Source of the DNA: Minisyncoccota bacterium
GTDB taxonomy: Bacteria; Patescibacteriota; Minisyncoccia; Minisyncoccales; RBG-13-42-11
DNA length: 64,000 nucleotides
NCBI GenBank assembly: GCA_016782605.1
Contig: JADHYE010000001.1
Location: 11,128-75,127 of the forward strand
Reading direction: 5' to 3'
Position numbers and translations under genes: made by a program. The notes beneath the pieces are model-generated. The model worked only from the letters and a program-made list of their open reading frames with translations, did not search any database and had not been told where the DNA came from. Shown here in pieces: positions 5,791-55,215 of this stretch (the stretch's first letter is position 1; the number at the start of each line of letters is the position of its first letter).

Positions 5791-5860
5791 CTAGGTAGTA
5801 GAAATTCGACAAATTTATTTTTCTTTGCTGCCAGGCAGCAGTCGAATTTTCACTACCTGG
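5791..5860 (-). mobile_element. family B hairpin (MITE-like) element, copy B1
   Basis: 70 bp. Arms are ctaggtagtagaaattcgac / gtcgaattttcactacctgg. Flanked by cata at 5787-5790 and 5861-5864 (TATG in gene sense). 5789-5787 is the pcm ATG. Confidence 0.7.
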
Positions 5861-6312
5861 CATAGTTTTTGTGGTAAACTCATTTTATCAATAAATAGTA
5901 TTCCGTCCAAGTGGTCAATCTCGTGCTGGAAAACCCTGGCTGACAATCCATCAACTTTCATTTTGATTTTTTCCCCCTGCAGATTAAGAAACTCCAGTTC
6001 CACTTCCTTAGCTCTTTTAATCTTTAAAAACAAACCAGGAAAACTCAAGCATCCCTCTTCCATGACTTCTGTCTTTCTGCTTTTCCGCACGATCTTTGGA
6101 TTTATGAAAACTTGCGACTTTCCTTCAAAAAAAGCAGCGATTATGCTTTTTGATTCGCCGATCTGAGAAGCAGCCAATCCAATGCCGTCTTTTTCCATCA
6201 TTATCTTTTTCATTTCTTCGGCCAATATCTTCACCTCCTCGGTTATCTCCTTGATCGCAGAAGATTTCTTTCTCAGTATTGGATTTGGATATTCTAATAT
6301 TTGCTTACTCAT
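5815..6312 (-). CDS. def: peptide deformylase
   Basis: EGCLSFPG and QHEIDHLDG metal-site motifs. The last ~15 codons (CQVVKIRLLPGSKEK*) and the stop codon are encoded by element B1. Confidence 0.9.
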   Translation of the reverse strand: MSKQILEYPNPILRKKSSAIKEITEEVKILAEEMKKIMMEKDGIGLAASQIGESKSIIAAFFEGKSQVFINPKIVRKSRKTEVMEEGCLSFPGLFLKIKRAKEVELEFLNLQGEKIKMKVDGLSARVFQHEIDHLDGILFIDKMSLPQKLCQVVKIRLLPGSKEK

Positions 6313-7534
6313 GTCTTCTTAATGCATCAACTGGTTTTAATTTAGCAGCTGTCCTGGCCGGCAGAACTCCGGAAACGCAACCGATAATAAAAGAAAAAAC
6401 CAAGCCGAAAACAACCAAACCGAGGTTTACCGAAGCAGTAAAATAGAAAACAGGATGCACCTGTCCATAGAATTCAATACCTTTGGCCAGTAAGGAACCG
6501 AGCAGAGTGCCGCCTATCCCTCCAATTAAACCGACAATGCCCGCTTCAAAAAGAAATATCAAAAGGATAGCTGAGTTTTTCGCTCCAATTGCCTTCATGA
6601 TACCTATTTCTTTAGTCCTTTCTCTGACCGAAGTAAACATGCTGTTAGTAATTCCGATGCCCCCGACAATAATGGCAATGCTGGCAAAAGCAAAAATGAC
6701 CATCTGAATTATGCCCAAAATATTGCCGGCTATCGCCCCCATTTTTTCGGAAGTGATAACGGAAAAATCAGCCTCGTCGGTTCCTGACCTTCTCTTTCTT
6801 GTTTCGCTTAAGGCTTCTTCAATTTTTTGAGCCACGACATTCTCATCCACTCCGTCTTCAAGCTTAACCATGGCATAAGCAGCAGTGCCCCGCTTTTCTC
6901 CGGTAACGTCCTGGTAGACTTTCATATCCATATATACCATACTGTCGTCCTGCTTGCTGCCCAAGGAATCGAGCACTCCTGCCACCTGGAATTTTCTTCC
7001 CTTTATCGTTATTTCCGAACCGGCTTTCACTTCCTTTGAGAAAATTTCAGTGGCCACCTGGGAACCGATTAAAACTTCGTTTCCTTTGCTCGGCCACCTT
7101 CCTTCGGTCAAACTCCAGCCCTGAAAAATGCTCAAAATATCCAAACCTTCCTTCCACGGATCATAGCCGGCGATGGCTATTTGCTTTGATTCTTCCTTAA
7201 ACCTGGCAATAGCTCCGGTATAAGAAAATCCCAAAACCTTGTCTACGCCTTCTGCTTTTTTAATCGCTTCAATGTCTTCTTTCTGCAGCTTTGCGCCACC
7301 GAACATCATGGACGTAAGAAGATCTTCATCGCTGCCCGGCATAACCATAACCATTTCTCCGCCCATGGCCTGCAGCTGCTGGTTTATCGTTGATTTCAAT
7401 CCTTCTGACAGAGAAAGCAGGGAAATTATTAAAAAAACGCCAATGACAATGCCTAAAATAGTAAGAAAACTTCTCAATGACCTTGTTCTGATATTTCTGA
7501 CGGCAATATTAAAATATTCTTTTAATTCTTCCAT
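6305..7534 (-). CDS. ABC transporter permease, MacB/FtsX type
   Basis: 409 aa. N-terminal TM helix, large extracytoplasmic domain, three C-terminal TM helices. Overlaps the neighbouring ATPase gene. Confidence 0.85.
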   Translation of the reverse strand: MEELKEYFNIAVRNIRTRSLRSFLTILGIVIGVFLIISLLSLSEGLKSTINQQLQAMGGEMVMVMPGSDEDLLTSMMFGGAKLQKEDIEAIKKAEGVDKVLGFSYTGAIARFKEESKQIAIAGYDPWKEGLDILSIFQGWSLTEGRWPSKGNEVLIGSQVATEIFSKEVKAGSEITIKGRKFQVAGVLDSLGSKQDDSMVYMDMKVYQDVTGEKRGTAAYAMVKLEDGVDENVVAQKIEEALSETRKRRSGTDEADFSVITSEKMGAIAGNILGIIQMVIFAFASIAIIVGGIGITNSMFTSVRERTKEIGIMKAIGAKNSAILLIFLFEAGIVGLIGGIGGTLLGSLLAKGIEFYGQVHPVFYFTASVNLGLVVFGLVFSFIIGCVSGVLPARTAAKLKPVDALRRHE

Positions 7535-8235
7535 AAATAGTCTTTGGCAGTGGAATGGTTTTCAACTATCATGCCGTCTTCAATGTTTACTACCTGTTCG
7601 GCATAATTGGCGATCTTTGCATCATGGGTGACTACGACAACGGTCTTGCCCTCATTCTTGTGAAAATCGGTCAGCACTTCCATTATCTTTTCCCCGGTAA
7701 CAGAATCCAAATTTCCCGTCGGCTCGTCAGCGATAATCACTTCGGGATGATTGGCAAAAGCCCTGGCAATAGCCACTCTCTGGCGTTCGCCTCCGGAAAG
7801 CTCTCCTGGCCCATGGAAAATCCTATCCTCCAAATCAACGGAAACTAAAATGTCTTTTGCCCTCTTTTTTCTTTCTTCCTGGGCTATACCCTGAAAAGTC
7901 ATGGGTAGCATTACGTTTTCAATAGCTGAAAGATTAGAAAGTAAATTGAATTCCTGAAAAATAAAACCGAGTATCTTACCACGAAATTGAGCCAGTTGGC
8001 TTTCTGCCATTAAAGAAATGTCTTTGCCTTTTAAAAAAACTTTTCCCTTTGTCGGCGAATCCAAACAGCCGATAATATTTAAAAGAGTTGATTTGCCCGA
8101 GCCCGAAGACCCCATAATCGCCACAAAAGCGCCTGGAAAAATTTCCAGGCTCAATCCTCTTAAAGCGTGAACTTCTGTCTTTCCTAATTCGTAAGTTCTC
8201 CAGACATTATCCAGTTTAATAATTGGCTCTGCCAT
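7522..8235 (-). CDS. ABC transporter ATP-binding protein (MacB/LolD-like)
   Basis: Walker A GSSGSGKST, signature LSGGERQR, Walker B IIADEPTGNLD. Confidence 0.9.
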   Translation of the reverse strand: MAEPIIKLDNVWRTYELGKTEVHALRGLSLEIFPGAFVAIMGSSGSGKSTLLNIIGCLDSPTKGKVFLKGKDISLMAESQLAQFRGKILGFIFQEFNLLSNLSAIENVMLPMTFQGIAQEERKKRAKDILVSVDLEDRIFHGPGELSGGERQRVAIARAFANHPEVIIADEPTGNLDSVTGEKIMEVLTDFHKNEGKTVVVVTHDAKIANYAEQVVNIEDGMIVENHSTAKDYLWKN

Positions 8236-9776
8236 TATCTTAAAATTACTTTTTCTCCCTGCTCCAAACCAGAAACAATCTCCACCATATCATTACTACC
8301 TTTTAACCCGACTTCAATATCTTTTTCCTGAACGTTTCCGTCAACAAGAATTTCAACAAAATCTCTGGAATCCCTCGTACGGATTGCATCCTCAGGAAGA
8401 ATCAAAACATTGTCTTTTGTTTGGGCTTTAATGACAATATCAGCTGACATGCCAGACCTTATGCCTTCTGGAGTATCTTCAAATCCAATAATCGTCTCGT
8501 AATAAACCACTCCGTCAACTATTTTCTCCGCCGGGCTTATTAAAATAATCTTTCCTGTAAAAGTTTTTCCAGAAAAAGCAACCAAAGAAATATCAACAGA
8601 ATTACCGACAGCAATCTTAACCACGTCTTCTTCGTAAATATCTACTTTTATCTCGTAGGAAGCTGTTGGCAAAAGCACTATTACCGCTTCCTGTGAACCT
8701 GCTTGCGCTGACTCGCCTTCATTTTTATTTATCTCAGCAATCTTTCCTTCTACCGGACTGATAATCTTTGACTGCTCAATCTCGTTCTGATAAAGCTGCA
8801 CTTTAGTCAAAGCCTGCTTTACCTGGGTTGAATATAAATCAACGTCTACTTGTTTAGGATCGCCCGCCACCAGATCAAAATTATTCTCTGCTTCCTGGAG
8901 ACTTGCTCTCATCGTTTCAACGCCGGCTTCTGCAGAATAGATTGCCTGCTGATTGGTAATGATACTAGCTAAAGCAGTGTTAATATTTGTTTTTAAAGTA
9001 TCCAAAGAAGCTCTGTCAGCTGCTGAAACCTTGCTTTTATAAACAGGGGCTGTATCAACGACAGAACGTATTGTTTCTAGATGCAAAAATGTCTTCTCAA
9101 GATAATCTTTCATTATGGCCAAAGAAGCTTTGATATTTTCATTGGTCGGATTGGCTGCTAACGCATCTAAATTGCTTTCTGTCGCTTTTTCTACGCTTTC
9201 TATAGTATCCCTGGCTATCATTATTTTTCCGGCATCTGAATCAAAAGTACCAACATAACTGATGACAAACTGCTTCACAAAAACCAAAGCATTGTAAATG
9301 GAAGGATAAGAACTGTCCAAAACAGTCATGGCTGTCTGAAAGCTTTGCTGCAGATCATCTTGAGAGTTTTTAAAGGCAATTTGGGCGTTGTTAAGTTGTG
9401 CCTGGGAGATTTTAACTTCTTCAGTGCTAGCTCCTTCCAGCAGCTTTGTCAGATTTAACTGAGCTATCTCATAAGCAGCTCTCGCTTCCTGAAGCTGAAT
9501 ATTAATATCAGCTGTATCCAATATAGCCAATTCTTGTCCGGCCTGCACTTCATCGCCCACAGCAACATAAATCTTTTCAATTTTCCCGGTATTGCCGAAA
9601 TTAAGACTCAGCTTCTCTCCCTTTTCTACCTGTCCTGTTTCAAAAATCTCCTGACTGACGGTTCCTAAGGTTACTTCAACCAAATTAAACTCAGGCTTCT
9701 TTTCTTTCAAGAAAACCTGATAAACGAAAACTACTAGAACGATTACTGCGCCGATTATTAATATTTGTCTTTTCAT
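8235..9776 (-). CDS. HlyD/MacA-family periplasmic adaptor protein
   Basis: 513 aa. N-terminal TM helix, long coiled-coil region, C-terminal beta-barrel-like region. Forms an operon with the MacB-like pair. Confidence 0.7.
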   Translation of the reverse strand: MKRQILIIGAVIVLVVFVYQVFLKEKKPEFNLVEVTLGTVSQEIFETGQVEKGEKLSLNFGNTGKIEKIYVAVGDEVQAGQELAILDTADINIQLQEARAAYEIAQLNLTKLLEGASTEEVKISQAQLNNAQIAFKNSQDDLQQSFQTAMTVLDSSYPSIYNALVFVKQFVISYVGTFDSDAGKIMIARDTIESVEKATESNLDALAANPTNENIKASLAIMKDYLEKTFLHLETIRSVVDTAPVYKSKVSAADRASLDTLKTNINTALASIITNQQAIYSAEAGVETMRASLQEAENNFDLVAGDPKQVDVDLYSTQVKQALTKVQLYQNEIEQSKIISPVEGKIAEINKNEGESAQAGSQEAVIVLLPTASYEIKVDIYEEDVVKIAVGNSVDISLVAFSGKTFTGKIILISPAEKIVDGVVYYETIIGFEDTPEGIRSGMSADIVIKAQTKDNVLILPEDAIRTRDSRDFVEILVDGNVQEKDIEVGLKGSNDMVEIVSGLEQGEKVILR

Positions 9777-10084
9777 ATGTTTTGCTTAATTATTATTTGA
9801 TGCCAGTCCTCGTAGCAATATATTCCCTGGAACATCCAACCGACGAGAAAACCGGCAGAAAGGGTAAAAAACAAAGGCGAAAATCGATATTTCTTTCTTA
9901 AAAAAAATATAAGAAAGCACAATAAAGTCATTGAAATCAGCCAGTGATGCAAATGAATATGCCATCCCCACACATTAAAAGCCAAACTAAACAAGCCGAT
10001 ATCTCCTGTTTTTTCTCCGGCTAAAAACTTGCCAGTAAAATATCCAGCTGATGAACCTGTAAAAAATCCTAATAAAGTTCCCAT
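9773..10084 (-). CDS. small hypothetical membrane protein
   Basis: 103 aa, hydrophobic. Overlaps the adaptor gene start by 4 nt. Confidence 0.4.
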   Translation of the reverse strand: MGTLLGFFTGSSAGYFTGKFLAGEKTGDIGLFSLAFNVWGWHIHLHHWLISMTLLCFLIFFLRKKYRFSPLFFTLSAGFLVGWMFQGIYCYEDWHQIIIKQNI

Positions 10085-10091
10085 ATTTTTG

Positions 10092-10163
10092 CGGGGGCGC
10101 CAGGATTCGAACCTAGAACAGAAATTTTGGAGATTCCCATGATAGCCATTTCACCACGCCCCC
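10092..10163 (-). tRNA. trnW: tRNA-Trp (anticodon CCA)
   Basis: 72 nt, hand-folded. Acceptor GGGGGCG/CGCCCCC, anticodon loop CTCCAAA, T-loop TTCGAAT. No encoded CCA. Confidence 0.85.
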
Positions 10164-10167
10164 GTAT

Positions 10168-10500
10168 TTACATATTTCGTCTTGCGCAAAAAGCGTACTG
10201 CAAGAAATAATCATCAAGGTCTTTAAGCGAACTATTGTATTCTTTGCCACCGGTAACAGCATCGCAAAATAATTCTTTTACTCTGGCAATTTCCCTAATT
10301 CTTCCACTCAATCTTGGATCTATAAGAGTCAAATCAAACAACTCCAAAGCCCTGGCAACTGCTCCCCAAAAAGTATCTTCATCTTCCCCCTGCCATTTTC
10401 TAGCCCTGCTAACCTCACTACCGATATTAGCCATTTGCTCAATTAATGAAAGCTTGAACCATCTCCCCGATGAAAGGTCTTTGTGCAAGGTTTTTGTCAT
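10168..10500 (-). CDS. hypothetical helical protein
   Basis: 110-aa ORF. Overlaps the upstream ORF by 4 nt (ATGA-type coupling). Family not recognised with certainty. Confidence 0.4.
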   Translation of the reverse strand: MTKTLHKDLSSGRWFKLSLIEQMANIGSEVSRARKWQGEDEDTFWGAVARALELFDLTLIDPRLSGRIREIARVKELFCDAVTGGKEYNSSLKDLDDYFLQYAFCARRNM

Positions 10501-10847
10501 TGTGAAATTAATTTCTCTACGATATTTCTAATTTTATTCTGGATTTCTGGATTATCAACACTACGAGAACGATTGCCGAATGACGGTTTCAGATTAATAA
10601 CCGAATCGAATTCTATCATTTCTTCTTTATTTTTTCCCGGATATATATTTATCCCCCATGTGCTTTCGCGCCTTGATGTTTCCTTTTCCATTAATATTGC
10701 TTCTTCGTCAGCATGCATTTCTCCGCCCACGGCCATTATCCCCTGATCAATATCAACAACCGCTTTTATCAAATCGCCAAACTGCTCTTTTGCCATGTCA
10801 ATAAGCTCTTTTTTACTTATTGGATCTTTAATAATTTTTATCTCCAT
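10497..10847 (-). CDS. hypothetical protein (resembles the DUF5674-type family, from memory)
   Basis: ORF 10497-10877. The likely start is MEIKIIKDPISKKEL... at 10847. Contains conserved-looking MAVGGEMHADEE and GNRSRSV segments. Confidence 0.45.
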   Translation of the reverse strand: MEIKIIKDPISKKELIDMAKEQFGDLIKAVVDIDQGIMAVGGEMHADEEAILMEKETSRRESTWGINIYPGKNKEEMIEFDSVINLKPSFGNRSRSVDNPEIQNKIRNIVEKLISQ

Positions 10848-10942
10848 ATTGCTTATTTGCTTGCCGAGCTGCAGCAAGATAGAAGAAGAGATTTATCTCT
10901 TCGCTTCTTTGTGAAAACTAACTAAAAAGCACTTATATGAAT

Positions 10943-10970
10943 ATTATATCTAAAAAATAGATTATTACAA
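10943..10970 (-). promoter_or_regulatory. sigma70-like promoter TTGTAA-N16-TATAAT
   Basis: -35 at 10970-10965 and -10 at 10948-10943 on the minus strand, upstream of the 10847/10500 gene pair. Confidence 0.5.
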
Positions 10971-11107
10971 GCAATTTTTCTGTATTAATGTTTATTTAAT
11001 AAACACTAAAAAACCGTCTTCTTGAGAAAACGGCCGAAATCGGCTCCCCTGGTTGGACGATGCCTGTCCTGAGTCGCATCGAAGGGTTAGAACCTGGTTA
11101 AGAACTG

Positions 11108-11287
11108 CTAATTGGTCTTTTTAATTTTTTTTCTCATGGCTAATAAACCAATAGTAATAAATAATACTCCTGTCAATATCCATAATAGTGATGCAACTCC
11201 CGACATAACAGCTGCTCCAATAACAATCCAAATAACTCCGATAGCTATGTGAATTTGAAAAGGAAATTCTCTTTTTTGTTTTTCCAT
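11108..11287 (-). CDS. small hypothetical membrane protein (59 aa)
   Basis: Hand translation gives MEKQKREFPFQIHIAIGVIWIVIGAAVMSGVASLLWILTGVLFITIGLLAMRKKIKKTN*. Two hydrophobic helices. Below the ORF-track size cutoff. Confidence 0.3.
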   Translation of the reverse strand: MEKQKREFPFQIHIAIGVIWIVIGAAVMSGVASLLWILTGVLFITIGLLAMRKKIKKTN

Positions 11288-11380
11288 ATGTTTAAAAATT
11301 AATTATTTATTCCTTTTTCAATTCTACCAAAAAACCGCCCAAAACAATAGACGGAATAGCTACATCTCCATTGTTCGATT

Positions 11381-11920
11381 CTATTTTGTAAAAGGTAAAT
11401 TTGTTATTATTCTTGTAATCGCTGGGTGTTGGCTACAAAGTCTATATTGAAGTAATTTTATCACTATAAAAAAATCTTCTATTTCTGAAGTTAGTTTTTC
11501 TGGCCCAGTAAATATTTCTTTCGCCTCTTCAAGTGTGTGTTTAAAATACTCGCCAAGTTTTTCAGTATTAACCTTATTCTTTAAATAAGCTATGATTTTT
11601 TTAAACTCTCCATCATCGAGCCAAATCCCTTTACATTTGTTACAAAAATCTACTCTAACATCAGAACCTCCATAATGAACCTCATATAAATTCACTTTAC
11701 ACGTGGGGCAGATTTTTGAGGAATGAGAAGGTTGAAATTTCTCACTGTCTTTCCAAAGGTCAATATCTAACCATTTTAAAAATTGGTCTTCTTCATCTTT
11801 TGCTTTTCTTAACTCATCCTGATTAAACCAAATTCCTTTACATTGACTACACCTCTCTATTTGGTTTTTATTAAAAGTGATTTTTTCTAACGTTTCTTGT
11901 TTACAATTTGGACAATTCAT
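11381..11920 (-). CDS. zinc-ribbon protein (two CxxC...CxxC modules)
   Basis: 179 aa with CPNC...CSQC and CPTC...CNKC followed by GIWF/GIWL motifs (TFIIB-type zinc ribbon). Confidence 0.6.
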   Translation of the reverse strand: MNCPNCKQETLEKITFNKNQIERCSQCKGIWFNQDELRKAKDEEDQFLKWLDIDLWKDSEKFQPSHSSKICPTCKVNLYEVHYGGSDVRVDFCNKCKGIWLDDGEFKKIIAYLKNKVNTEKLGEYFKHTLEEAKEIFTGPEKLTSEIEDFFIVIKLLQYRLCSQHPAITRIITNLPFTK

Positions 11921-12037
11921 ATAATTATATTTTTAAAAAAATAATCTTTTAATCAGTATACCAAAAAACCGCCACCGCCGAAAGGCGGATTGGCGATTTT
12001 TATCGTGGCTTGCCCTGAGCGAGCGAAGCGAGTCGAA

Positions 12038-12065
12038 TGGGCTCCGGAGGTAGGATTCGAACCTC
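12038..12065 (-). other. orphan tRNA 3'-end fragment (T-loop, acceptor strand and encoded CCA)
   Basis: Minus strand reads GAGGTTCGAATCCTACCTCCGGAGCCCA. No matching 5' acceptor strand, D-arm or anticodon arm lies upstream. Confidence 0.45.
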
Positions 12066-12111
12066 TATTATTTTATGTTTATTATTTCCTCAAGCTCAAG
12101 ACAAAAAGCGC

Positions 12112-12276
12112 CTAACGCTTCCCTTCTTTGTGCAAGGTATGCTTTCTGCACCATTTGCAGAATTTCTTAAAACCCAACTTCTTCTCAACAGCTTCCTTTG
12201 ATTTCTTAGTAAAGTAATTAACCCTTTTGCATTCCTGGCATTGAAGTTTAGTAAATGGTCTTTTTTTAGCTGCCAT
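12112..12276 (-). CDS. rpmG: 50S ribosomal protein L33
   Basis: Hand translation gives MAAKKRPFTKLQCQECKRVNYFTKKSKEAVEKKLGFKKFCKWCRKHTLHKEGKR* (54 aa, CxxC...CxxC). Below the ORF-track cutoff. Confidence 0.85.
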   Translation of the reverse strand: MAAKKRPFTKLQCQECKRVNYFTKKSKEAVEKKLGFKKFCKWCRKHTLHKEGKR

Positions 12277-13348: not shown

Positions 13349-13480
13349 CCCTGTATATCAACATCCAGGCATTTTCAATGCGAAAACACCCTGAAGATTG
13401 TCTTTATTTAATAATATATTTAACATAATAACTTTGTTTGAGATTTTAATACGAAGTATTCTGGATGTTGTATTACGGGG
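13349..13480 (-). mobile_element. family A element, copy A2
   Basis: 132 bp, flanked by cata at 13345-13348 and 13481-13484. 13347-13345 is the trmD ATG. Confidence 0.7.
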
Positions 13481-14447: not shown

Positions 14448-15137
14448 TTACCAATGTTTGACTGCTAAAGCGTTTTTCGCTGCCTCAACTTCTGCTTCTT
14501 GTTTTGAAGATCCTTTGCCTTCGGCCACTAAATCCTTATCAAGGAAAACGCCGATAACGAAATTCTTTGCGTGATCCGGCCCGTGTTCTTTCAAAACTTT
14601 ATAGGTCGGAGTAATGCCCACTCTTTCTTGGGCTGCTTCCTGGAAAGTGGATTTAGCATCCCTGAAAAGACCTTTCTCAATGATTTCCGGCAATTTAACG
14701 ATTAAATTCTTTTTAATGAATTTTTCGCATGCTTTATAGCCTGAATCAAGGTAAGCTGAACCGATAAACGCTTCAAAAGTGTTGGCCAGGATATAATCCC
14801 TTGATTTGCCTGTTTCTTTCATTTCTCCTTTTGAAAGAAGCAAAAAATCATTAAAGCCCAATTCCTTAGCAACCTCAGCAAGCATTTTAGCATTAACCAG
14901 AGAAGCGCGCCAGTTGGTCAATTCGCCTTCCGGCTTTTTGGGATATTTGACAAAAAGGTGTTCGGTAATAATAAGTTCCAAAACCGCATCTCCCAAAAAT
15001 TCCAGTCTTTCATTGTTATCCAGATTGGCTTTCGGATTCTCGTTCAGATAGGAGCGATGGCAAAAAGCCTGAATCAATAAATCCTTGTTTTTGAATTTAA
15101 AATTTAATTGCTTTTCCAATATTGAAAAATCATTCAT
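14448..15137 (-). CDS. rnc: ribonuclease III
   Basis: Signature NERLEFLGDAVLE and a C-terminal dsRBD (..GSSKQEAEVEAAKNAL). Confidence 0.9.
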   Translation of the reverse strand: MNDFSILEKQLNFKFKNKDLLIQAFCHRSYLNENPKANLDNNERLEFLGDAVLELIITEHLFVKYPKKPEGELTNWRASLVNAKMLAEVAKELGFNDFLLLSKGEMKETGKSRDYILANTFEAFIGSAYLDSGYKACEKFIKKNLIVKLPEIIEKGLFRDAKSTFQEAAQERVGITPTYKVLKEHGPDHAKNFVIGVFLDKDLVAEGKGSSKQEAEVEAAKNALAVKHW

Positions 15138-15267
15138 ATACCGAGTCCGCCCAAGGCGGGCGAAGGTGAAGAAGAGGTTTACCTCTTCGACTTACTTTTC
15201 TAATACCGAGTCCGCCCAAGGCGGGCGAAGGTGAAGAAGAGGTTTACCTCTTCGACTTACTTTTCTA
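15138..15267 (-). repeat. perfect 65-bp tandem duplication (2 units) of a two-hairpin intergenic module that includes the nusB stop codon
   Basis: 15138-15202 and 15203-15267 are identical by eye. Each unit contains GTCCGCC-caa-GGCGGGC and GAAGAGG-ttta-CCTCTTC hairpins plus ..cttacttttcta (the last nusB codons). Confidence 0.8.
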
Positions 15268-33575: not shown

Positions 33576-33870
33576 AGTGGTAATACCTAATTAAGTCGCG
33601 GCTCGCGCATATTATATATTAATATATTGCCTTCGGCGAATGTGCTACTGCCGCTCTTTAGAAGACGAACGCAGTGAGGCGGGAAAAAAGATTTATCTCT
33701 TTGACCACTCTCGGTGCTCAATGAAGCTAAAGCTTCATTTCGGTCTGCGCTTCCGTGAACGGAAGCTTGCCTTCTAACGTTTTCCACCTCATCGGCGGAA
33801 ATCCTGTTTTCCTATACGGAAGAACCTGATGGTTCTTCCGACCCATCTCCGATATGGGATACTATTACGT
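33576..33870 (-). repeat. composite structured leader repeat F2, directly upstream of the rplK ATG
   Basis: Shares the start-proximal block with F1 and F3, block 33651-33739 with F1, and block 33807-33868 with F3 (57726-57787). Confidence 0.6.
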
Positions 33871-34031
33871 TAATTATTAATTGTTCAAGCGAGGCAACAA
33901 GTTTTAAAGTAGCTCTCGGAAGCCTATTTGCATGGTTCGCCGGAAGCGAAAATAGGCTGAGAGCGCAACTCCCAAAATCTCGCAGGGATTTTGAGAAGCG
34001 GTACTTTCAAAACTTAGTTGCCGAGCACCCC

Positions 34032-34845: not shown

Positions 34846-34930
34846 CCCCGCACCACTTTGCAGAAGAAATCTTCTTTTTAATATTTTGAAACAACTAATG
34901 AGATTTAAGTTGCATCAAAGTGGTGCGGGG
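34846..34930. mobile_element. family C-like hairpin element, copy C3
   Basis: 85 bp with perfect 15-bp arms ccccgcaccactttg / caaagtggtgcgggg. Flanked by tcaa at 34842-34845 and 34931-34934. Confidence 0.65.
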
Positions 34931-47113: not shown

Positions 47114-47245
47114 CCCTGTATATCAACATCCAGGCATTTTCAATGCGAAAACACCCTGAAGATTGTCTTTATTTAATAATATATTTAACATAATAACTTT
47201 GTTTGAGATTTTAATACGAAGTATTCTGGATGTTGTATCACGGGG
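47114..47245 (-). mobile_element. family A element, copy A5
   Basis: 132 bp, flanked by cata at 47110-47113 and 47246-47249. 47112-47110 is the rseP ATG. Confidence 0.7.
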
Positions 47246-47811: not shown

Positions 47812-47943
47812 CCCTGTGTATCAACATCCAGGCATTTTCAATGCGAAAACATCCTGAAGATTGTTTTTATTTAATAATATATTTAACATAATAACTTTGT
47901 TTGAGATTTTAATACGAAGTATTCTGGATGTTGTATTACGGGG
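47812..47943 (-). mobile_element. family A element, copy A6
   Basis: 132 bp, flanked by cata at 47808-47811 and 47944-47947. 47810-47808 is the frr ATG. Confidence 0.7.
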
Positions 47944-48845: not shown

Positions 48846-49847
48846 TTATCTTTTATTCATTATGCTCTTTTTGTAAACATCAAGGTTTTCCAAAACTACG
48901 CCCGTTCCTTTGGCCACGCAAAGCAAAGGGTCTTCAGCCAGAAAGCAAGGGACGCCTGTTTCCCGGGAAATCATTTCTGTAATATTTCTTAACAATGCGC
49001 CGCCACCAGAAACGATCATGCCTTTGTCGATTATGTCGGCTGACAATTCAGGCGGCGTATCCCTTAATACAGTTTTAATAACATGGATAATATCTCCCAA
49101 GATTTCAGAGATCGCTTCGGCAATTTCGTTGGAAGAAATTTTAACTGTCCGGGGCAAACCGGAAACCAAATCCCTGCCGCGAATTTCTATAAATCTTGGC
49201 TCTTTTTCCGGTATAGCTGTACCTATTTTCATTTTAACCTCCTCTGCTGTCTGTTCTCCGATAGCTAAATTGTATTTTTTCTTTATATAATCTGAAATGG
49301 CAAAATCCATTTTGTCTCCGCCGATCCTGATAGAATTACAAGTGACTATTCCCCCCAAAGATATGACAGCTATTTCAGAAGTCCCGCCGCCGATATCAAC
49401 AATCATATTGCCAGAACAGGAATTAATCGGAATGCCAGCGCCAATGGCTGCTAAAATCGGCTCTTTTGCCAAATATGCCTGTTTGGCACCCGCATTCAAA
49501 GCAGCTTCAATTACCGCTCTTTTCTCGGTTGAGGTAATGCCAGCTGGCACGCCTATCATTAATTCAGGTTTTAAGAAACGCCAAAAACCGCATACTTTAT
49601 CAATAAAATGCCTTAGCATTGCCTGAGTCACCCTGAAATCAGCAATCACCCCGTCTTTTAAAGGACGATAAACCCTAATTGTGTCTGGAGTACGACCGAT
49701 CATTTCTTTTGCTTCTTCCCCGATTGCCAGAATTCTGTTCTCTTCTAGGGCAACAGCAACAACTGAAGGCTCTTGCAAAACCACTCCTTTACCGGGAAGA
49801 AAAACCAAAGAATTGGCAGTACCCAAATCTATACCTATTTTTCTCAT
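48846..49847 (-). CDS. MreB/actin-like protein (paralog 2)
   Basis: DLGTANS and DIGGGTSE motifs. 333 aa. Confidence 0.85.
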   Translation of the reverse strand: MRKIGIDLGTANSLVFLPGKGVVLQEPSVVAVALEENRILAIGEEAKEMIGRTPDTIRVYRPLKDGVIADFRVTQAMLRHFIDKVCGFWRFLKPELMIGVPAGITSTEKRAVIEAALNAGAKQAYLAKEPILAAIGAGIPINSCSGNMIVDIGGGTSEIAVISLGGIVTCNSIRIGGDKMDFAISDYIKKKYNLAIGEQTAEEVKMKIGTAIPEKEPRFIEIRGRDLVSGLPRTVKISSNEIAEAISEILGDIIHVIKTVLRDTPPELSADIIDKGMIVSGGGALLRNITEMISRETGVPCFLAEDPLLCVAKGTGVVLENLDVYKKSIMNKR

Positions 49848-49877
49848 AAATATATTAACAATTAATTCAAATCTATC

Positions 49878-51074
49878 TTATCTTAATTCCCGTCTTTTGA
49901 CAAATATACCAACTATCAAAACTACAATAACTACGAAAATACCGCCGAAAATAAACACTAAATCATATCCCAGAAAACCAATAAGCAAGCCGGAAACCAA
50001 AGCTCCTAAAGCAACGCCTAAAGGAGCAAAAACAGTATCAATGGCACTGGCTTCTTCCGGCTCTGTCTTAAAGCTTCTGGAGACCAATCCTGAACGGCCA
50101 GAATTGCAAATTAAAGCGCCAGCAGAACGTAAAACATTAATCAGCAAAACGCTGAAAAAATTCAAAAAGCCACTAGCTAGACCAAAGACAATCGATAATA
50201 GTCCAGCAATTAATCCGCCCCGAAAAATACTTGCTCTACTATTGCTCTTTTCTAAATATTTAATAAGTAAGAAAGATAAGGGAAGAAACAAAACTGAAAA
50301 AACTGAAATAAAAATCAGAATTAAATTCTGCGACCAGACCAATTGCTCTTTTAAAAATAAAACGAAGAAAGCATGGTAAAAACCGGCCAAAAGCAAAACG
50401 GAAAAAGAAATCAAAAGAAAAGGCAGAATACTTCTCTTTTTTAAAAGTTGAAAAATCTTTTGGTAGTTATTCTGGGAATCCCTGACCTTAAAGCCTGCAT
50501 CCGTTAAAGTTCTCGCTGGTTTCCTTAGTTTAAAAAAGCAAAAAAAGGCGGTAAAAAGATGAAGTGCCATGCTTAAAATAAACACGCCGACAAAATTAAA
50601 CTGCCAGACAAAAAAAGCGCCGATAGCCGGAGCAATGGCATCAGCATAAAAAGGAGCAGAATAAAACCAACCGAAAGACCTGTCAGCATTCTCTAAAGGA
50701 AAACCCATTAAAATAGACCTAATTGAAACAAAAAACAAGGCAGCAGAAACCCCTAGCAAAACCTGCCAGAAATAAAACAATGCCTGGTTTTGAATTAAAA
50801 TCATACCCAGAGCGTAAAGAGCGTAACCAAAAATTCCAATAGCTGAAAGTATGGCCGGATTAATCTTGTGATTCAAAAAACCGGCAATCGGAGCGAATAA
50901 AGCAAGAGGCAAATAAATAAGCAGAAAAGCATAACCAACCTCAGGTAAAGACAAACCACGAGTAACCAAAAACAAAGGGAAATACAAAGAAAATGTTTTG
51001 TAGCCAAACAATAAAAAGAAATGGACTATGGTTGCGTCCATGGTTATCTTTTCTATCTTGGGAATGAAAAACAT
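49878..51074 (-). CDS. MFS-type transporter (putative)
   Basis: 398 aa with about 12 hydrophobic segments. Confidence 0.55.
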   Translation of the reverse strand: MFFIPKIEKITMDATIVHFFLLFGYKTFSLYFPLFLVTRGLSLPEVGYAFLLIYLPLALFAPIAGFLNHKINPAILSAIGIFGYALYALGMILIQNQALFYFWQVLLGVSAALFFVSIRSILMGFPLENADRSFGWFYSAPFYADAIAPAIGAFFVWQFNFVGVFILSMALHLFTAFFCFFKLRKPARTLTDAGFKVRDSQNNYQKIFQLLKKRSILPFLLISFSVLLLAGFYHAFFVLFLKEQLVWSQNLILIFISVFSVLFLPLSFLLIKYLEKSNSRASIFRGGLIAGLLSIVFGLASGFLNFFSVLLINVLRSAGALICNSGRSGLVSRSFKTEPEEASAIDTVFAPLGVALGALVSGLLIGFLGYDLVFIFGGIFVVIVVLIVGIFVKRRELR

Positions 51075-51090
51075 ATTCAGTTATTCTAGC

Positions 51091-51129
51091 AAAAAAAATA
51101 GCGGGTAGCCATTACAATTGACTACCCGC
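51091..51129 (-). terminator. strong intrinsic terminator after the 51135-51893 gene
   Basis: Minus strand reads GCGGGTAG-tcaattgtaatgg-CTACCCGC followed by TATTTTTTTT. Confidence 0.8.
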
Positions 51130-51134
51130 ACTGC

Positions 51135-51893
51135 TCACAGAGCAGATAACTTCTCCTCAACTCCACTGATGTGGAATTTAGCACTCAGCCCAGTCTCCTT
51201 CTGAGACCTCTCATATAACTTTATGGCCGTTCTGTACTCCGTCTTTGCTCTTCGTGTCTCTCCGATTTCCCTAAGGGCATCGGCCTTGTTCTGTTTGGCA
51301 TGCCCCGCTGTTCGGAGATCTCCCTTTGCCAAAGCAGTCTTATGCACCTTTTCGCACACTTGAACACTCTCAGCGAACCTTCCCTCACGACGAAGGGTAA
51401 TGGCCTTGGTATTCCAAACCGATGGCTCTTCGGAGAATGATGCAACAGCCTTATTGATAACTGACCAAGTCTCTGGCTTTTTATCTAAAAGCCAAAGTGC
51501 CAAGGGCAGCCCATTCAAACAGGAAATTTTCCTGCTTTTGTTTCTGGTATTAAGAGCTTCCCGAAACGAAAGCTCTGCTAGTTTAAGGTTGCCCTTCCTG
51601 GTTGCGACCGGGCCTTTGATTGAGATATAATAGTAATCCCATCCCAATATCCGGTTAGCCTCGGCAATCTCTTCTTTGCCGGTTAAACTTACTTTGTTCT
51701 TCTTGATCAAGGCAACTGACTCATCATATTTACCATCTGCATACAATTTCTTAGCCAGTTTCAAGATCTTTTGGGCCGGCATCGCTTTGGCAATTTCCTG
51801 CTCTTTTTTAAAGAACAGATAAACCATTGCATTGCAACCGGTAACAAAGCCCAATAGCAAGATAAATCCTGCTGAAAGAAAAAACTCTGCCAT
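51135..51893 (-). CDS. membrane-anchored TPR-like repeat protein, GC-richer than its surroundings
   Basis: 252 aa with an N-terminal TM helix and helical repeats. Preceded by AAAGGAGGTG (51908-51899), 5 nt before the ATG. Confidence 0.45.
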   Translation of the reverse strand: MAEFFLSAGFILLLGFVTGCNAMVYLFFKKEQEIAKAMPAQKILKLAKKLYADGKYDESVALIKKNKVSLTGKEEIAEANRILGWDYYYISIKGPVATRKGNLKLAELSFREALNTRNKSRKISCLNGLPLALWLLDKKPETWSVINKAVASFSEEPSVWNTKAITLRREGRFAESVQVCEKVHKTALAKGDLRTAGHAKQNKADALREIGETRRAKTEYRTAIKLYERSQKETGLSAKFHISGVEEKLSAL

Positions 51894-52066
51894 CTCGGCA
51901 CCTCCTTTCTTTATTTCTTATCTTTCGTTAATATATTAATCAAATCCTTACCTTGCAGGATATAATATGAATTCAACCTCCATCTCTCTTCTCTGCTCCT
52001 CACCATATATATCAACCCATATTGGACATAAAATGAACCACCGCTCCCCTCCTTCTACAATCACAT

Positions 52067-52095
52067 ATATTACCACGCTCTTTCCAAAATGTCAA
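52067..52095 (-). promoter_or_regulatory. consensus sigma70 promoter TTGACA-N17-TAATAT
   Basis: -35 at 52095-52090 and -10 at 52072-52067 on the minus strand. Would give a leader of about 170 nt to the 51893 ATG. TTGA of the -35 is also the flanking repeat of element C2. Confidence 0.6.
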
Positions 52096-52165
52096 CCCCA
52101 TTAGAAGTCCGCCTTGCCGGAGGCATGGCGACAGCCACCAAGGGGGCAGCTTACTTCTAACGGAG
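52096..52165. mobile_element. family C hairpin element, copy C2
   Basis: 70 bp. Arms are ccccattagaagt / acttctaacggag with a GC-rich interior. Flanked by tcaa at 52092-52095 and 52166-52169. Confidence 0.6.
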
Positions 52166-52177
52166 TCAAGATTGAGG

Positions 52178-52183
52178 TATAAT
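52178..52183 (+). promoter_or_regulatory. -10 hexamer TATAAT placing a predicted TSS on the A of the upstream duplicated ATG (52190)
   Basis: TATAAT-AATCAT-ATG. The -35 is weak. Confidence 0.35.
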
Positions 52184-52192
52184 AATCATATG

Positions 52193-52264
52193 CCAGGTAG
52201 TGAAAATTCAACCACTGCCGCGGCAGTGAAAAAAATAATAATTTGTCGAATTTCTACTACCTAG
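52193..52264 (+). mobile_element. family B element, copy B3 (inverted relative to B1 and B2, matching its plus-strand gene)
   Basis: 72 bp, flanked by tatg at 52189-52192 and 52265-52268. 52266-52268 is the ATG of the 52266-53570 gene. Confidence 0.7.
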
Positions 52265-52265
52265 T

Positions 52266-53570
52266 ATGACCAAAAAGACAAAAACAATACTGTTTTTAGC
52301 CTGCTTACTTGCATTCATCCTGTTAGCTCCCTCAATAGTCCTGTACTCCCAAGGATACAGAATTGATTTTAATCCTCCAGAAGGCGGAAAAATGATTACC
52401 CAAACCGGAGGCCTTTTTTTGAAAGTCACGCCCAAACAAACAGATATTTATATTGACGGCAAACCTAAAAAAAGAACTGATTTTCTATTCGGTTCTGTTT
52501 TAATTGAAAACCTCATTCCTGGAAAGTACAAAGTAGAAATCAAAAAATTAACCAGCCAGGAAGAATACTATCCCTGGGAGAAAAACCTGGAAATACGGGA
52601 AAAACAGGTAACTGAAGCCAAGAACGTTGTCCTTTTCCCGAAAAACGTTAATTTCAACGTCTTATCAACCAACGTAGAACAGCTTTGGCTTTCTCTGGAC
52701 CAAAAGAAACTAATCTTAAAGGAAAATGAAAAAGCCAGCTGGTCCTTAAAGCTTTACGACCCGGAAAAGAATATAAAAAGCTATTTAATAAGCGACGAGG
52801 ATTTCTTCACGAAAGAACCCCAATTAATCAATCTGAAATTCTCGGGAGACTCAAGAAGTATTAATCTGGAAGTCAGCATAAAAGAAGCAATACAATCTTT
52901 TTCTCTGCAACTTGACCAAGCAAAACCAACTTTAAATAAAAAAACAGCAGCCACAACGACAACTGGAAACGCTGCTATCTCGCAACAAGCAGGCAATGAT
53001 ATATATTATCTGGACAGTTTCGGCTATCTTTTCAGGAATAAAGAAAAGCTGGCAGAAACTCCCTTTCAAACAAAACAAGAAACAGAATATGCTTTAGATA
53101 TTTTCAACGGCAACATATTCTTAAAAGAAAACGACAAACTGTACAAATTCAATTACAATCTGAAAACATTTGAACATTTCTTTGACGGAATCAATATCTT
53201 AAAGCTTTCTCCGGACAATAAAAAACTGCTTTACGCTTCAAACAATGAAATGTGGATTCTTTTCCTGGAAGACAAAATCGACCAGCCGCAGAAAAAATCA
53301 GGAGAGAAAATCTTTTTAATCCGCTTATCAGACCAAATCACAAGCATCTCCTGGATAAACGACAATTACCTGGCTTTTCTTGCCGGCAATACCGTTAAAA
53401 TCATTGAAATAGACGACAGGGACAGAATAAACGTTATAGACATCTTTGAAACAAAAAACCTCCCTCAAGAAGGAAGCATTAATGAAATGTCCTGGAACAG
53501 GTTTGACAATAAAATCTATCTCTTGGACGAAAACGGCTATTTATATAGCTCTAACGTCCTGCTCCCGTAA
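52266..53570 (+). CDS. hypothetical membrane-anchored protein with a PEGA-like domain and a C-terminal propeller-like region
   Basis: 434 aa. N-terminal TM helix, and TDIYIDGKPKKRT...PGKYKVEIKK resembling PEGA. Confidence 0.5.
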   Translation: MTKKTKTILFLACLLAFILLAPSIVLYSQGYRIDFNPPEGGKMITQTGGLFLKVTPKQTDIYIDGKPKKRTDFLFGSVLIENLIPGKYKVEIKKLTSQEEYYPWEKNLEIREKQVTEAKNVVLFPKNVNFNVLSTNVEQLWLSLDQKKLILKENEKASWSLKLYDPEKNIKSYLISDEDFFTKEPQLINLKFSGDSRSINLEVSIKEAIQSFSLQLDQAKPTLNKKTAATTTTGNAAISQQAGNDIYYLDSFGYLFRNKEKLAETPFQTKQETEYALDIFNGNIFLKENDKLYKFNYNLKTFEHFFDGINILKLSPDNKKLLYASNNEMWILFLEDKIDQPQKKSGEKIFLIRLSDQITSISWINDNYLAFLAGNTVKIIEIDDRDRINVIDIFETKNLPQEGSINEMSWNRFDNKIYLLDENGYLYSSNVLLP

Positions 53571-54269
53571 TTTGATTTTCTTTTTAAAAGCTTCCCAGCC
53601 CATTTCTCCGGTATTGGCTATAACGCAAACTTCCTTGAACTGGCAATAACGACACTGCCAATTATCGGGGTAATCCGATAATCTGTCGGGAATAACGTTC
53701 TTATCAATCTTCTTTCTAATACCAGCCAAAAAGTCCAAAAGAGAAAGGGCGCATTTTTTATCGTATTTTACGACAAAATCCTTCAGCTGCTGGTTATCTT
53801 TATTAACGTAAAGCAGTATTCCTTTAGGAATCTTAAAATAATGGAGATAAAGCTGAAGCTGAGCAATATTTTCCTCCTTTGGCTCAGTTAACTTACCAAA
53901 AATCATGCTGTTCATACTTTTAATATCCAAAACATATAGTTCCTTGCCATCGCTGATTATGGCATCAGCCCTGCCTGAAATCAGTTCCTGAGGAGGAATA
54001 TTAACTTCGGCAGCCACCACATGGATTTCCCTGGTGCTCAAAAGCGGCTTCATAATAAGCTGATGGATGTGGTCGCCATGGTCAAACAGCCTTAGAATAT
54101 TGGCCTCCATCTCCTTTCTGGGAACATTCTTGAACTTAAAAAACAAAGCTCTGCCGCATTTGCCTGCGTCAGTAATATAAAAGTGATGCTGCTCTTTATC
54201 TCTTTGCCTGTCCAAATAGAATTTATCGATTATATCTTTAAGAAACATAGAGTTTATCTCTTCTGCCAC
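53541..54269 (-). CDS. PD-(D/E)XK nuclease with a Cas4-like 4-Cys arrangement
   Basis: One N-terminal Cys (DAGKCGRA), a D..DIK catalytic-type motif, QLQLY, and C-terminal CRYCQFKEVC (Cx2Cx5C). Confidence 0.6.
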   Translation of the reverse strand: MAEEINSMFLKDIIDKFYLDRQRDKEQHHFYITDAGKCGRALFFKFKNVPRKEMEANILRLFDHGDHIHQLIMKPLLSTREIHVVAAEVNIPPQELISGRADAIISDGKELYVLDIKSMNSMIFGKLTEPKEENIAQLQLYLHYFKIPKGILLYVNKDNQQLKDFVVKYDKKCALSLLDFLAGIRKKIDKNVIPDRLSDYPDNWQCRYCQFKEVCVIANTGEMGWEAFKKKIKLREQDVRAI

Positions 54270-54739
54270 TGAGGAGCACGACGAGCGCGCTTCAATCCGA
54301 ACTTCTTTCTTTCCCTCATCCTCGGGTCTCTTTTCAAAAAACCAGCTTTTTTCAACTGTTTCCTCAATTCTGGATCGAATAAAACTAAAGCGCGAGTTAA
54401 ACCGTGCCTGACAGCTTCAGCCTGGGAAGTCGTCCCTCCCCCTTTAACTTTTACTGAAACCTGAAATTTGTCAGAATAATCAGTCAAAATCAAAGGAGAA
54501 AAAATAATACGCTGAAGGTATTTTGTCGGAAAATAATTTTCAAAAGTCCTTGTATTTATTAAAAAGGTCTTTTCTTTTTGAACAGAAATTCTCACCCTGG
54601 CTACAGCTGTCTTTCTCCTGCCTATGCCCTCAAAATACCTGGCTACTTTAGGTTTAACTGTTACTTTGGCAGTTTTTTTAGCTGGAGCTTTTTTGACTTT
54701 CTTTACTGTTTCTTTTTTTGTTTTTTTAGCCTTTGGCAT
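54254..54739 (-). CDS. rpsI: 30S ribosomal protein S9 with a Lys-rich N-terminal extension
   Basis: C-terminus ..RERKKFGLKRARRAPQWQKR is canonical S9. The ORF-track start (54760) runs into repeat A7. ATG at 54739 gives MPKAKKTKK... Confidence 0.9.
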   Translation of the reverse strand: MPKAKKTKKETVKKVKKAPAKKTAKVTVKPKVARYFEGIGRRKTAVARVRISVQKEKTFLINTRTFENYFPTKYLQRIIFSPLILTDYSDKFQVSVKVKGGGTTSQAEAVRHGLTRALVLFDPELRKQLKKAGFLKRDPRMRERKKFGLKRARRAPQWQKR

Positions 54740-54740
54740 A

Positions 54741-54872
54741 CCCCGTATATCAACATCCAAGCATTTTCAATGCGAAAACACTCTGAAGGCTGTTTTTATT
54801 TAATAATATATTCAACATAATAACTTTGTTTGATATTTTAATACGAAGTATTCTGGATGTTGTATTACAGGG
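54741..54872 (-). mobile_element. family A element, copy A7
   Basis: 132 bp, flanked by cata at 54737-54740 and 54873-54876. The rplM stop codon (54867-54865) lies inside the element. Confidence 0.7.
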
Positions 54873-55215
54873 CATATTTTAATCTTTTAATCATTTTTGC
54901 TCTTAATTTATTCTTGGGCAGCATGCCAAAAACCGCTTTCCTCAAAACTTCTTCCGGATTCTTCTCAAATAACTTCTCCAAAGTTATCTCCTTCAAGCTT
55001 CCCAGATATCCAGAATGACGGTAGTATTTCTTCTGTTTGGCTTTTTTGCCGGTGAATTTCAACTTATCAACGTTTTGGACAATAACAACATCGCCGATAT
55101 CTTTGTACGGCGCAAAGTCTGCTTTCTGTTTCCCCCTCAAAAGCAAAGCTATTTCAACAGCCAGTCTGCCTAAAACCTTATCAGTAGCGTCTATTTTGTG
55201 GGTTTTGCGTTCCAT
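54865..55215 (-). CDS. rplM: 50S ribosomal protein L13
   Basis: 116 aa, L13-like (..VLGRLAVEIALLLRGK..). The last residues (..YAL*) are encoded by TATG plus element A7. Confidence 0.9.
   Translation of the reverse strand: MERKTHKIDATDKVLGRLAVEIALLLRGKQKADFAPYKDIGDVVIVQNVDKLKFTGKKAKQKKYYRHSGYLGSLKEITLEKLFEKNPEEVLRKAVFGMLPKNKLRAKMIKRLKYAL

Follow-up and report, generated by a model that had tools for sequence, protein, structure and literature searches.

Small inverted-repeat elements inserted at start codons rewrite the ends of neighbouring genes in a Patescibacteria genome

The window analysed here is a stretch of 64,000 nucleotides (64 kb) from contig JADHYE010000001.1 of a Minisyncoccota bacterium, in which the genes for peptide deformylase (def), GatA (gatA) and ribosomal protein L13 (rplM) read across a duplicated TATG into small inverted-repeat elements, and end inside them. 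The window is gene-dense (~93% coding, according to crude gene calls), has 39% G+C and carries the majority of its genes on the minus strand. Its host is an ultra-small bacterium of the candidate phyla radiation (CPR; Patescibacteria), with a GatA that matches a protein of a 'Candidatus Pacebacteria' metagenome-assembled genome at 100% identity; its neighbours are annotated as Nealsonbacteria. The overall explanation that we favour, with a probability of about 0.85, is that these are elements that insert on start codons, duplicate 4 bp and thereby rewrite gene ends, with a longer form of one element family as candidate parent.

The relatives used for comparison are GCA_964481125.1, whose GatA is 96% identical (loci L001 and L005), and contig_56505 of ERZ25039515 (85%; loci L004 and L010), together with locus L006. 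The rewritten genes, the elements that rewrite them and the genes that follow are these:

def, 5815..6312, minus strand: peptide deformylase (Pfam Pep_deformylase, residues 3-147 of 165)
B1, 5791..5860, minus strand: element of 70 nt, CCAGGTAGTGAAAATTCGAC...GTCGAATTTCTACTACCTAG; TATG at 5861-5864 and 5787-5790; pcm ATG at 5789-5787; empty site CAAAAACTATGCCGCTTATTGAAGAATTAA in L010
pcm, 5154..5789, minus strand: protein-L-isoaspartate O-methyltransferase (Pfam PCMT)
gatA, 41915..43345, minus strand: Pfam Amidase
A4, 41791..41922, minus strand: element; TATG at 41923-41926 and 41787-41790; TAA at 41917-41915 is the gatA stop; empty site AAATTATATGGAAACAATTGA in L001 and L004
rplM, 54865..55215, minus strand: ribosomal protein L13 (Pfam Ribosomal_L13)
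A7, 54741..54872, minus strand: element; TATG at 54873-54876 and 54737-54740; TAA at 54867-54865 is the rplM stop; rpsI ATG at 54739-54737; empty site TTAAAATATGCCAAAGGTTAA in L005 and L006
rpsI, 54254..54739, minus strand: ribosomal protein S9 (Pfam Ribosomal_S9)

The start codons of pcm and rpsI are regenerated by the duplicated TATG. The gene downstream of gatA, whose ATG lies at 41789-41787, encodes an uncharacterised protein of 176 amino acids.

An earlier note on this DNA had proposed that three upstream genes read into elements, and all three read-throughs are present at the places that it gave. def crosses the junction CTATG|CC (...CAAAAACTATG|CCAGGTAGTG...) and stops inside B1, such that its protein ends ...QKLCQVVKIRLLPGSKEK. 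The stop behind ...KLYAL in GatA is the TAA of CCTTGTAA (41915-41922), which belongs to the left inverted repeat of A4. L13 ends ...KYAL* on the homologous TAA of A7, as had been proposed, although the surrounding octamer differs from that of A4: A7 has CCCTGTAA rather than CCTTGTAA. A second CCTTGTAA, at 57178-57185, is part of element A8, and the S11 gene upstream stops before that element. Read in the frame TAT|GCC, the left repeat terminates an incoming ORF at the fourth codon counted from TAT (with TAA in family A, TAG-TGA in family B), and the other frame yields tails of ~14 to 20 codons. B1 supplies the last 14 codons and the stop of def.

Deleting each element together with one TATG predicts an ancestral protein end, and the same ends are found in relatives. 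In a comparison of orthologue C-termini, Def, GatA and L13 end as predicted in element-free relatives. GatA ends in KLYGNN in P0003 (96% identical), P0004 and P0008, and in KLYGND in P0005-7; the proteins ending in KLYGNN are 96%, 92% and 85% identical to that of the window. L13 ends in KYAKG in P0121 (97% identical), P0122, P0124, P0126, P0127 and P0129, and Def ends in QKLCRLLKS or QKLCRLLKN in eight proteins (the former in P0248, the latter in P0242-45). The insertions therefore landed inside gene overlaps and replaced one to five C-terminal residues: GNN became AL in GatA (A4), KG became L in L13 (A7) and RLLKS became QVVKIRLLPGSKEK in Def (B1). Orthologous junctions have a single TATG, and the upstream gene stops 14 nt (gatA), 14 nt (rplM) or 22 nt (def) beyond the ATG of the next gene. 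Upstream genes do overlap the next ATG, then, as the note had anticipated, but by these distances and not by its 11 to 23 nt.

None of the tails KLYAL, KYAL or CQVVKIR... was seen in close relatives without elements, and no filled site without a matching duplication was seen. The rewritten tails are reproduced in independent assemblies (P0002, P0241). The Pfam domains of GatA, L13 and Def end before the altered residues, and the tails vary widely among orthologues. Because the changes lie outside conserved domains and in variable tails, the C-terminal rewriting is probably close to neutral.

At least 14 elements occur in the window, comprising eight of family A, three of B, two of C and one of D. 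Together with one copy of each 4-bp duplication, the 14 amount to 1,626 nt, or 2.5% of the window. In addition to B1, A4 and A7, they are as follows, with one further gene that they affect:

A1, 5021..5152, minus strand: TGAA duplication at 5153-5156 and 5017-5020; in the pcm/mltG ATGA overlap; empty site CTGAAAAAATGAAAAAATAT in L010
mltG, 3993-5021, minus strand: Pfam YceG
A2, 13349..13480, minus strand: on the trmD start codon; intergenic, without read-through; empty in L010
D1, 34846..34930, minus strand: inverted repeat CCCCGCACCACTTTG; TTGA duplication; intergenic, downstream of gyrB
A3, 36873..37019, minus strand: divergent copy of 147 nt; on the gyrB start codon; left flank AATG; empty in L001 and L004
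C1, 43327..43455, minus strand: inverted repeat CCCCGTTAGAAGTTTGC; TGAA duplication; in the gatC/gatA ATGA overlap; empty in L001 and L004
A5, 47114..47245, minus strand: on the start codon of rseP (M50 peptidase); the frr stop TAA abuts the left TATG; empty sites in relatives
A6, 47812..47943, minus strand: on the frr start codon; empty sites in relatives
C2, 52096..52165, plus strand: TCAA duplication; in the promoter region upstream of B2; empty in L005
B2, 52193..52264, plus strand: at the start of plus-strand gene 52266-53570; no element in L005, a B element in L004
A8, 57054..57185, minus strand: on the start of rpsD (S4), behind the stop of S11; empty in L005
B3, 59907..59979, minus strand: on the start of gene 58604-59905, just downstream of a TATAAT box; empty in L005

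Families A, B, C and D are small non-coding transposable-element families, 70 to 147 nt long, with inverted repeats of ~15 to 20 nt and CC...GG ends. Seven A copies are 132 nt in length and 81-100% identical over a 171-nt repeat unit, and the three B copies in the window measure 70 to 73 nt. The terminal inverted repeats of both families are ~20 nt long; CCCCGTAATACAACATCCAG pairs with CTGGATGTTGATATACRGGG in A, and CCAGGTAGTGAAAATTCGAC pairs with GTCGAATTTCTACTACCTRG in B. C and D elements have CCCCG...CGGGG ends. The inverted-repeat patterns are strongly over-represented: that of B occurs 6 times (0.18 expected) and that of A 20 times (2.5 expected). With terminal repeats, a duplication recognizable against empty sites, multiple copies and no transposase open reading frame (ORF), the elements have the properties of non-autonomous miniature inverted-repeat elements. 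TATG forms the 3' flank of 10 of the 11 A and B copies, and also the 5' flank of nine, well in excess of chance.

Other insertions end exactly at the TATG starts of ribosomal-protein genes, at 57643-57794 (S13/S11), at 33576-34031 (nusG/L11) and at ~3588-3992 (upstream of L10). They share modules (...CGCGACYTAATTAGGTATTACCAYTATG) plus repeats named D2 and D7, are rich in hairpins and look composite or nested, without an obvious 4-bp duplication. The 96% relative lacks the insertions at S13/S11 and nusG/L11, where its gaps measure 4 and 11 nt, and the shared modules upstream of L10 are missing in the 85% relative (L010). In a separate intergenic region, 15133-15262, a 65-nt unit is tandemly duplicated in perfect register (97% identity); the duplication holds a GC hairpin, CCGCCCAAGGCGGGCG, and a motif, AAGAAGAGGTTTACCTCTTCG, of which related copies lie at 364 and 10883.

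At all 11 A and B sites, and likewise at those of C1 and C2, at least one of the two relatives has no element and a single copy of the 4-mer. Non-canonical duplications also occur, namely TGAA (twice), TCAA and TTGA in the window, and CATG, AATG, TAAG, TTTG, TTCT and TAAA around B elements in metagenomes. Because such non-canonical flanks match on both sides, the 4-mer is a duplicated target and not part of the element, and because the sites are empty in relatives, the elements are recent insertions with a real 4-bp duplication rather than ancestral sequence. The matching flanks also rule out a reading of TATG in the style of IS200/IS605, as a target plus an element-borne tetranucleotide.

Some sites appear to have been used more than once. 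At the B2 site the 85% relative has a B copy of another subtype, with CCCGG ends (L004, ~1630-1710), and the 96% relative is empty, which suggests that this start codon is used recurrently by B elements. The def/pcm site of locus L009 holds a B copy ~94% identical to B1 by alignment, whereas the Def proteins are only 59% identical; this fits a recent independent insertion and not shared ancestry. In loci L007 and L008, whose Def is 62% identical, a decayed B copy occupies the same site and Def ends QKLCQIMKFRFLGCRSKG. Since the decayed element still supplies the end of the protein, element-derived tails can persist. Repeated use of the same sites is unsurprising, as ~22% of the TATG starts in the window are occupied. 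L007 and L008, which represent two strains of one population, also differ downstream of trmD (4642-5340 in L007, 4524-5327 in L008), where one strain has a LAGLIDADG_3 homing-endonuclease ORF and the other an unannotated ORF of 232 amino acids.

In all 11 A and B copies, the ATG of the 3' flank (GTG at A1) is the start codon of the downstream gene, and the element has one orientation relative to that gene (binomial p=0.001). The only plus-strand copy among them, B2, lies on a plus-strand gene, so orientation follows the gene. A reconstruction of the window before insertion, in which 74 genes were called, places TATG at the start of 45 of the 74. The 343 TATG sites on both strands comprise these 45 starts, 31 other non-coding sites and 267 coding sites. 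Ten insertions are at TATG, and all ten are on starts (10/45), with none at the other non-coding (0/31; Fisher p=0.004) or the coding sites (0/267; p=6e-10). Much of this pattern follows from TATG being a start context and from the loss of insertions inside genes. The excess on starts and the fixed polarity nevertheless ask for more than start context and purging.

A Shine-Dalgarno-like motif is present at only 8 of the 74 gene starts in this reconstruction. The regions upstream of starts are A/T-rich, with T at position -1 in 64% (47/74). In several genes, including those at the B2 and B3 sites, a TATAAT box lies 6 to 8 nt 5' of the ATG; this proximity suggests leaderless mRNAs at these genes.

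A1 and C1 rewrite starts. Both occupy 4-nt ATGA stop/start overlaps, pcm/mltG and gatC/gatA, with TGAA duplicated, and the upstream gene keeps its TGA stop in the left copy of the duplication, as pcm does beside A1. The mltG start changes from ATG to GTG (5021-5019), composed of the last G of A1 and the TG of the duplication. After C1, gatA can start at a GTG of the same make-up (43327-43325), with the last G of C1, or at an ATG within the element, at 43345, which adds MQTSNGV. The public GatA annotation uses the in-element ATG, giving MQTSNGVKIQ... where orthologues have MKIQ.... Both termini of GatA, with C1 at the start and A4 at the end, therefore carry residues or a start codon supplied by an element.

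More than 120 metagenome contigs were retrieved with a 16-mer of the B repeat, and 50 unique B elements were analysed. TATG lies on both sides of 26 of the 50, and most of the others deviate from it by one base or have matching non-canonical 4-mers. Only one element has the opposite polarity relative to TATG. The right-hand ATG opens a long ORF at ~36 of 42 sites. The target is extended to TATGCC at 12 of 40 B sites, compared with 4 of 74 gene starts in the window (p=0.0006); this extension is asymmetric and mimics the element's left junction, TATG|CC. In ~7 of 55 B insertions the upstream ORF runs into the element, with tails such as YAR*, YAG*, FAR* and CQVVKIR..., and gene-end rewriting thus recurs across the B family. 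The interiors of different B copies are unrelated to each other.

Three independent B insertions (L056/L095, L117 and L121) have TACG rather than TATG as the left duplication copy, possibly reflecting selection against a decoy upstream ATG. Nested B-type elements occur in L123 (1234-1596), L042, L053, L112 and L119. One nested case is a 31-nt mini-element in frame within a GIY-YIG ORF, and the others lie in the hairpin at the centre of short B copies and have duplications such as CGGG. The idea that short elements carry a conserved upstream ORF ending just 5' of the host ATG, as in termination-reinitiation, was rejected, since the stop in the frame of the left ATG is scattered from -255 to +44; an ORF that ends just before the host ATG holds only for nuclease-bearing B copies. 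Family A was not found outside this lineage: its repeat pattern gave four single matches in genome contigs, and an internal 22-mer had 0 matches in metagenome contigs. The one of the four that was inspected, in L012, is unrelated GC-rich sequence and looks like chance. A scan of viral contigs for B elements gave 13 single matches and one small repeat pair, and no transposase-sized partner. Searches for the remainder of the source contig with proteins from the edges of the window gave no match or short contigs only.

Eight long B elements (297 to 363 nt), at eight different insertion sites, contain one ORF between the same repeats and TATG flanks. This ORF encodes ~95 amino acids, is co-oriented with the host gene and has a GIY-YIG domain (PF01541, E=4e-18, 65.9 bits compared with a cut-off of 22.6) that is absent from the window's own element copies. 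The closest solved structures are UPF0213 proteins and SLX1, a structure-specific nuclease. In pairwise comparisons of the long-B ORFs, the proportion of synonymous differences (pS) is 0.7-0.9, which is saturated, that of nonsynonymous differences (pN) is 0.10-0.15 and their rate ratio (dN/dS) is ~0.07, and the 20-nt repeats are almost invariant. The saturated synonymous sites, low pN and invariant repeats imply that both the protein and the ends are under long-term constraint. In five of the eight the ORF is in frame with the duplicated host ATG through the left repeat (MPGSENST-x-IMFYYVYIL...), and public gene calls start at the flanking ATG in all three in-frame cases that were looked up. 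The ORF stops 24 to 34 nt before the host ATG in three of the five.

A search for a transposase-sized B partner, using fuzzy inverted-repeat matching within 6 kb, gave only chance-level results among 173 repeat matches, and no DDE transposase was found between the same repeats (pairs 0.5 to 6 kb apart in a sample of 134 loci), where the only ORF is GIY-YIG. Ten occurrences of P0361, the GIY-YIG protein of one nuclease-bearing element, were discarded as evidence for multiple copies, as all are one Metallophos/AMMECR1 locus in different samples. Derivation of A from the nuclease ORF by deletion was also discarded, given that local alignment scored no better than shuffles in two of three comparisons and was marginal in one. 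In L081 (4230-4620) a small GIY-YIG ORF is flanked by other inverted repeats (TTTACCCCCACACCTAATG...) and is not on a start codon, and in L072 (minus strand) a CCCCGC...GCGGGG hairpin lies upstream of a small GIY-YIG ORF; such ORFs may thus be associated with inverted repeats beyond the B family as well.

The sites show that A and B elements insert on TATG, the usual start context (10 of 11 copies in the window; extended to TATGCC across metagenomic B sites), in one polarity, and that the 4-bp duplication leaves an intact ATG before the downstream gene. An upstream frame that formerly ran 14-22 nt past this ATG now enters the left repeat and stops within the element. In the model that we propose, the copies in the window would be non-autonomous derivatives, and the candidate parent of B is the GIY-YIG-encoding element of 300 to 360 nt, which may borrow the promoter and start codon of the host gene to express its nuclease. 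Use of host expression signals by the ORF would explain why insertion is aimed at start codons in one orientation, and derivatives that lack the ORF, including B1-B3, would then report intrinsic insertion specificity. Religation after a cut with 4-nt overhangs would fit the polarity and the clean empty sites, but not the matched non-canonical duplications, which look like gap filling. More tentatively, B and by analogy A, C and D could form an unrecognised class of prokaryotic transposon whose sole protein is a ~95-residue SLX1/UPF0213-like GIY-YIG nuclease, expressed from the promoter and ATG of the host gene. Such a transposon would target start TATG(CC) in a single polarity, restore the host start through its 4-bp duplication and spawn derivatives of 70 to 150 nt, with about a quarter of the TATG starts in the window's genome occupied by them. 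We regard this stronger proposal as possible, though short of probable.

Several points weigh against these proposals. No GIY-YIG nuclease is known to catalyse transposition, and literature on GIY-YIG transposons yielded no report of such a nuclease as transposase. Pfam scans detected no mobilising enzyme encoded in the window, and no autonomous A, C or D element was found. The interior of A has no significant similarity to the nuclease ORF, and A, C and D are tied to the nuclease model by architecture alone (CC...GG ends, the 4-bp duplication and, for A, the same polarity). Five in-frame ORFs among eight are not significantly above one third. The gene calls behind the start-codon statistic are crude, which limits it, and as 59% of non-coding TATGs are starts, a bias to starts is partly expected.

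This last figure also speaks for a more conventional origin, in which the elements are ordinary miniature elements mobilised by an unseen DDE transposase (IS1380, IS5, IS701 or piggyBac-like) that prefers TATG, with genic insertions purged by selection and the GIY-YIG ORF a passenger. CC...GG ends resemble those of piggyBac/IS1380-type elements, non-canonical duplications fit strand transfer followed by gap filling, and C2 and D1, with their other 4-mers, are not on start codons. The 4-bp duplication is also like that of piggyBac at TTAA (PMC10813416). Yet the preference for starts, at 10/10 in the window (p=0.004-0.005) and ~36/42 in metagenomes (p=2e-4), exceeds 59%, and the asymmetric TATGCC bias is likewise hard to reconcile with such a transposase. 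Polarity is fixed even in copies without an ORF, on which host selection has little to act, because their two repeats differ by only 2 nt. The absence of a transposase-sized partner among the repeat matches, and the co-conservation of ORF and repeats while synonymous sites are saturated, do not suit a passenger ORF. We consider this origin rather unlikely, while taking it seriously.

The elements might instead be host regulatory modules retained for their benefit, for example as AUG-sequestering hairpins that couple downstream to upstream translation. RNA hairpins predicted at -32 to -49 kcal/mol, with z-scores from -3.5 to -7.6, pair both TATG copies and would bury the AUG, which also counts against the explanation that we favour. 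Even so, the essential genes rpsI, rpsD, frr, gyrB and trmD tolerate the elements and remain intact downstream of these hairpins. A decayed B copy also persists at def/pcm in a distant lineage. However, elements are missing from each of the sites that were examined in the 96% relative, none of the elements matches an Rfam family (in the window, the gathering score is reached by 6 tRNAs only), B interiors are mutually unrelated and the frame of the left ATG has no conserved stop position. A burst in copy number, duplications and nested insertions are marks of selfish spread, and a regulatory role seems very improbable as the reason for these elements. The B copies at def/pcm in distant lineages could also be read as an ancestral state, with elements later deleted in relatives, and assembly artefacts might be invoked as well. 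Clean single-copy sites in both the 96% and the 85% relative at many independent loci, near-identical copies at 8 unrelated loci, the ~94% identity of the L009 element to B1 compared with 59% for Def, and junctions reproduced in independent assemblies make the probability of either negligible.

Under the explanation that we favour, start-codon elements that duplicate 4 bp and rewrite gene ends, annotation is affected, in that the starts and ends of proteins in such metagenome-assembled genomes consist in part of transposon sequence. The catalogued GatA has an N- and a C-terminus that derive from elements, and Def tails of 14 to 15 element-encoded residues persist across lineages. A streamlined CPR genome poor in Shine-Dalgarno motifs tolerates hairpin-forming insertions on the starts of genes for ribosomal proteins, gyrase and translation factors, and this tolerance constrains how translation initiation works in CPR organisms. 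If the nuclease is the driver, a transposon aimed at start codons in a fixed polarity would be new, as would an autonomous-looking form of ~300 nt with a bare GIY-YIG domain, which would imply new transposition chemistry and possibly a compact tool for sequence-directed insertion.

In literature on CPR miniature elements, TATG duplications and GIY-YIG transposons, we found no description of the start-codon/TATG rule, the fixed polarity or repeat-bounded GIY-YIG units. Rewriting of gene ends by miniature elements is already established, and def, gatA and rplM are a new instance. In Coxiella, overlaps of 1-50 bp join QMITE1/2 to the 3' ends of genes such as ubiB, mutT and ruvB, and EnhC gains a 33-residue tail from a QMITE (PMC5896051). 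Like these elements, and like Rickettsia palindromic elements and Neisseria Correia elements, those in the window are small non-coding inverted repeats with high copy number and stable hairpins that supply C-termini and stops. Unlike in QMITE-type elements, the insertion point is the downstream start codon, the TATG duplication is fixed at 4 bp, polarity is fixed, and the overlap of genes is what leads to rewriting. Upstream repeats of Borrelia and REP2 of Neisseria also lie immediately 5' of genes and include the ATG start (PMC3184786). Those repeats carry the promoter, ribosome-binding site and ATG themselves, whereas here the ATG is duplicated host sequence and the sites are empty in relatives.

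Palindrome-associated elements of the IS200/IS605 group share insertion beside a fixed tetranucleotide and a fixed polarity. That group inserts without duplicating its target, and its hairpins are subterminal, in place of terminal inverted repeats; here, by contrast, matched non-canonical flanks and clear terminal repeats are seen. Clean empty sites, suggestive of precise excision, recall the IS1380/piggyBac group of DDE transposons, as does the 4-bp duplication. In piggyBac the duplicated target is TTAA (PMC10813416); the target TATG(CC) is by contrast non-palindromic and used in a fixed polarity, and no DDE transposase was found with these ends. GIY-YIG-encoding insertions have been described in CPR rRNA genes; they are unlike either class of intron, and their behaviour is not that of homing elements (PMC11270868). 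With these insertions and with free-standing or intron-borne GIY-YIG homing genes, the long B elements have in common a GIY-YIG domain as the sole coding content of a small mobile insertion. B elements differ from GIY-YIG homing genes in having inverted repeats and a duplication, and in sitting before many unrelated genes rather than at one cognate site. Unlike I-TevI, the long-B protein is a bare catalytic domain of ~85 residues, closest to UPF0213 and SLX1.

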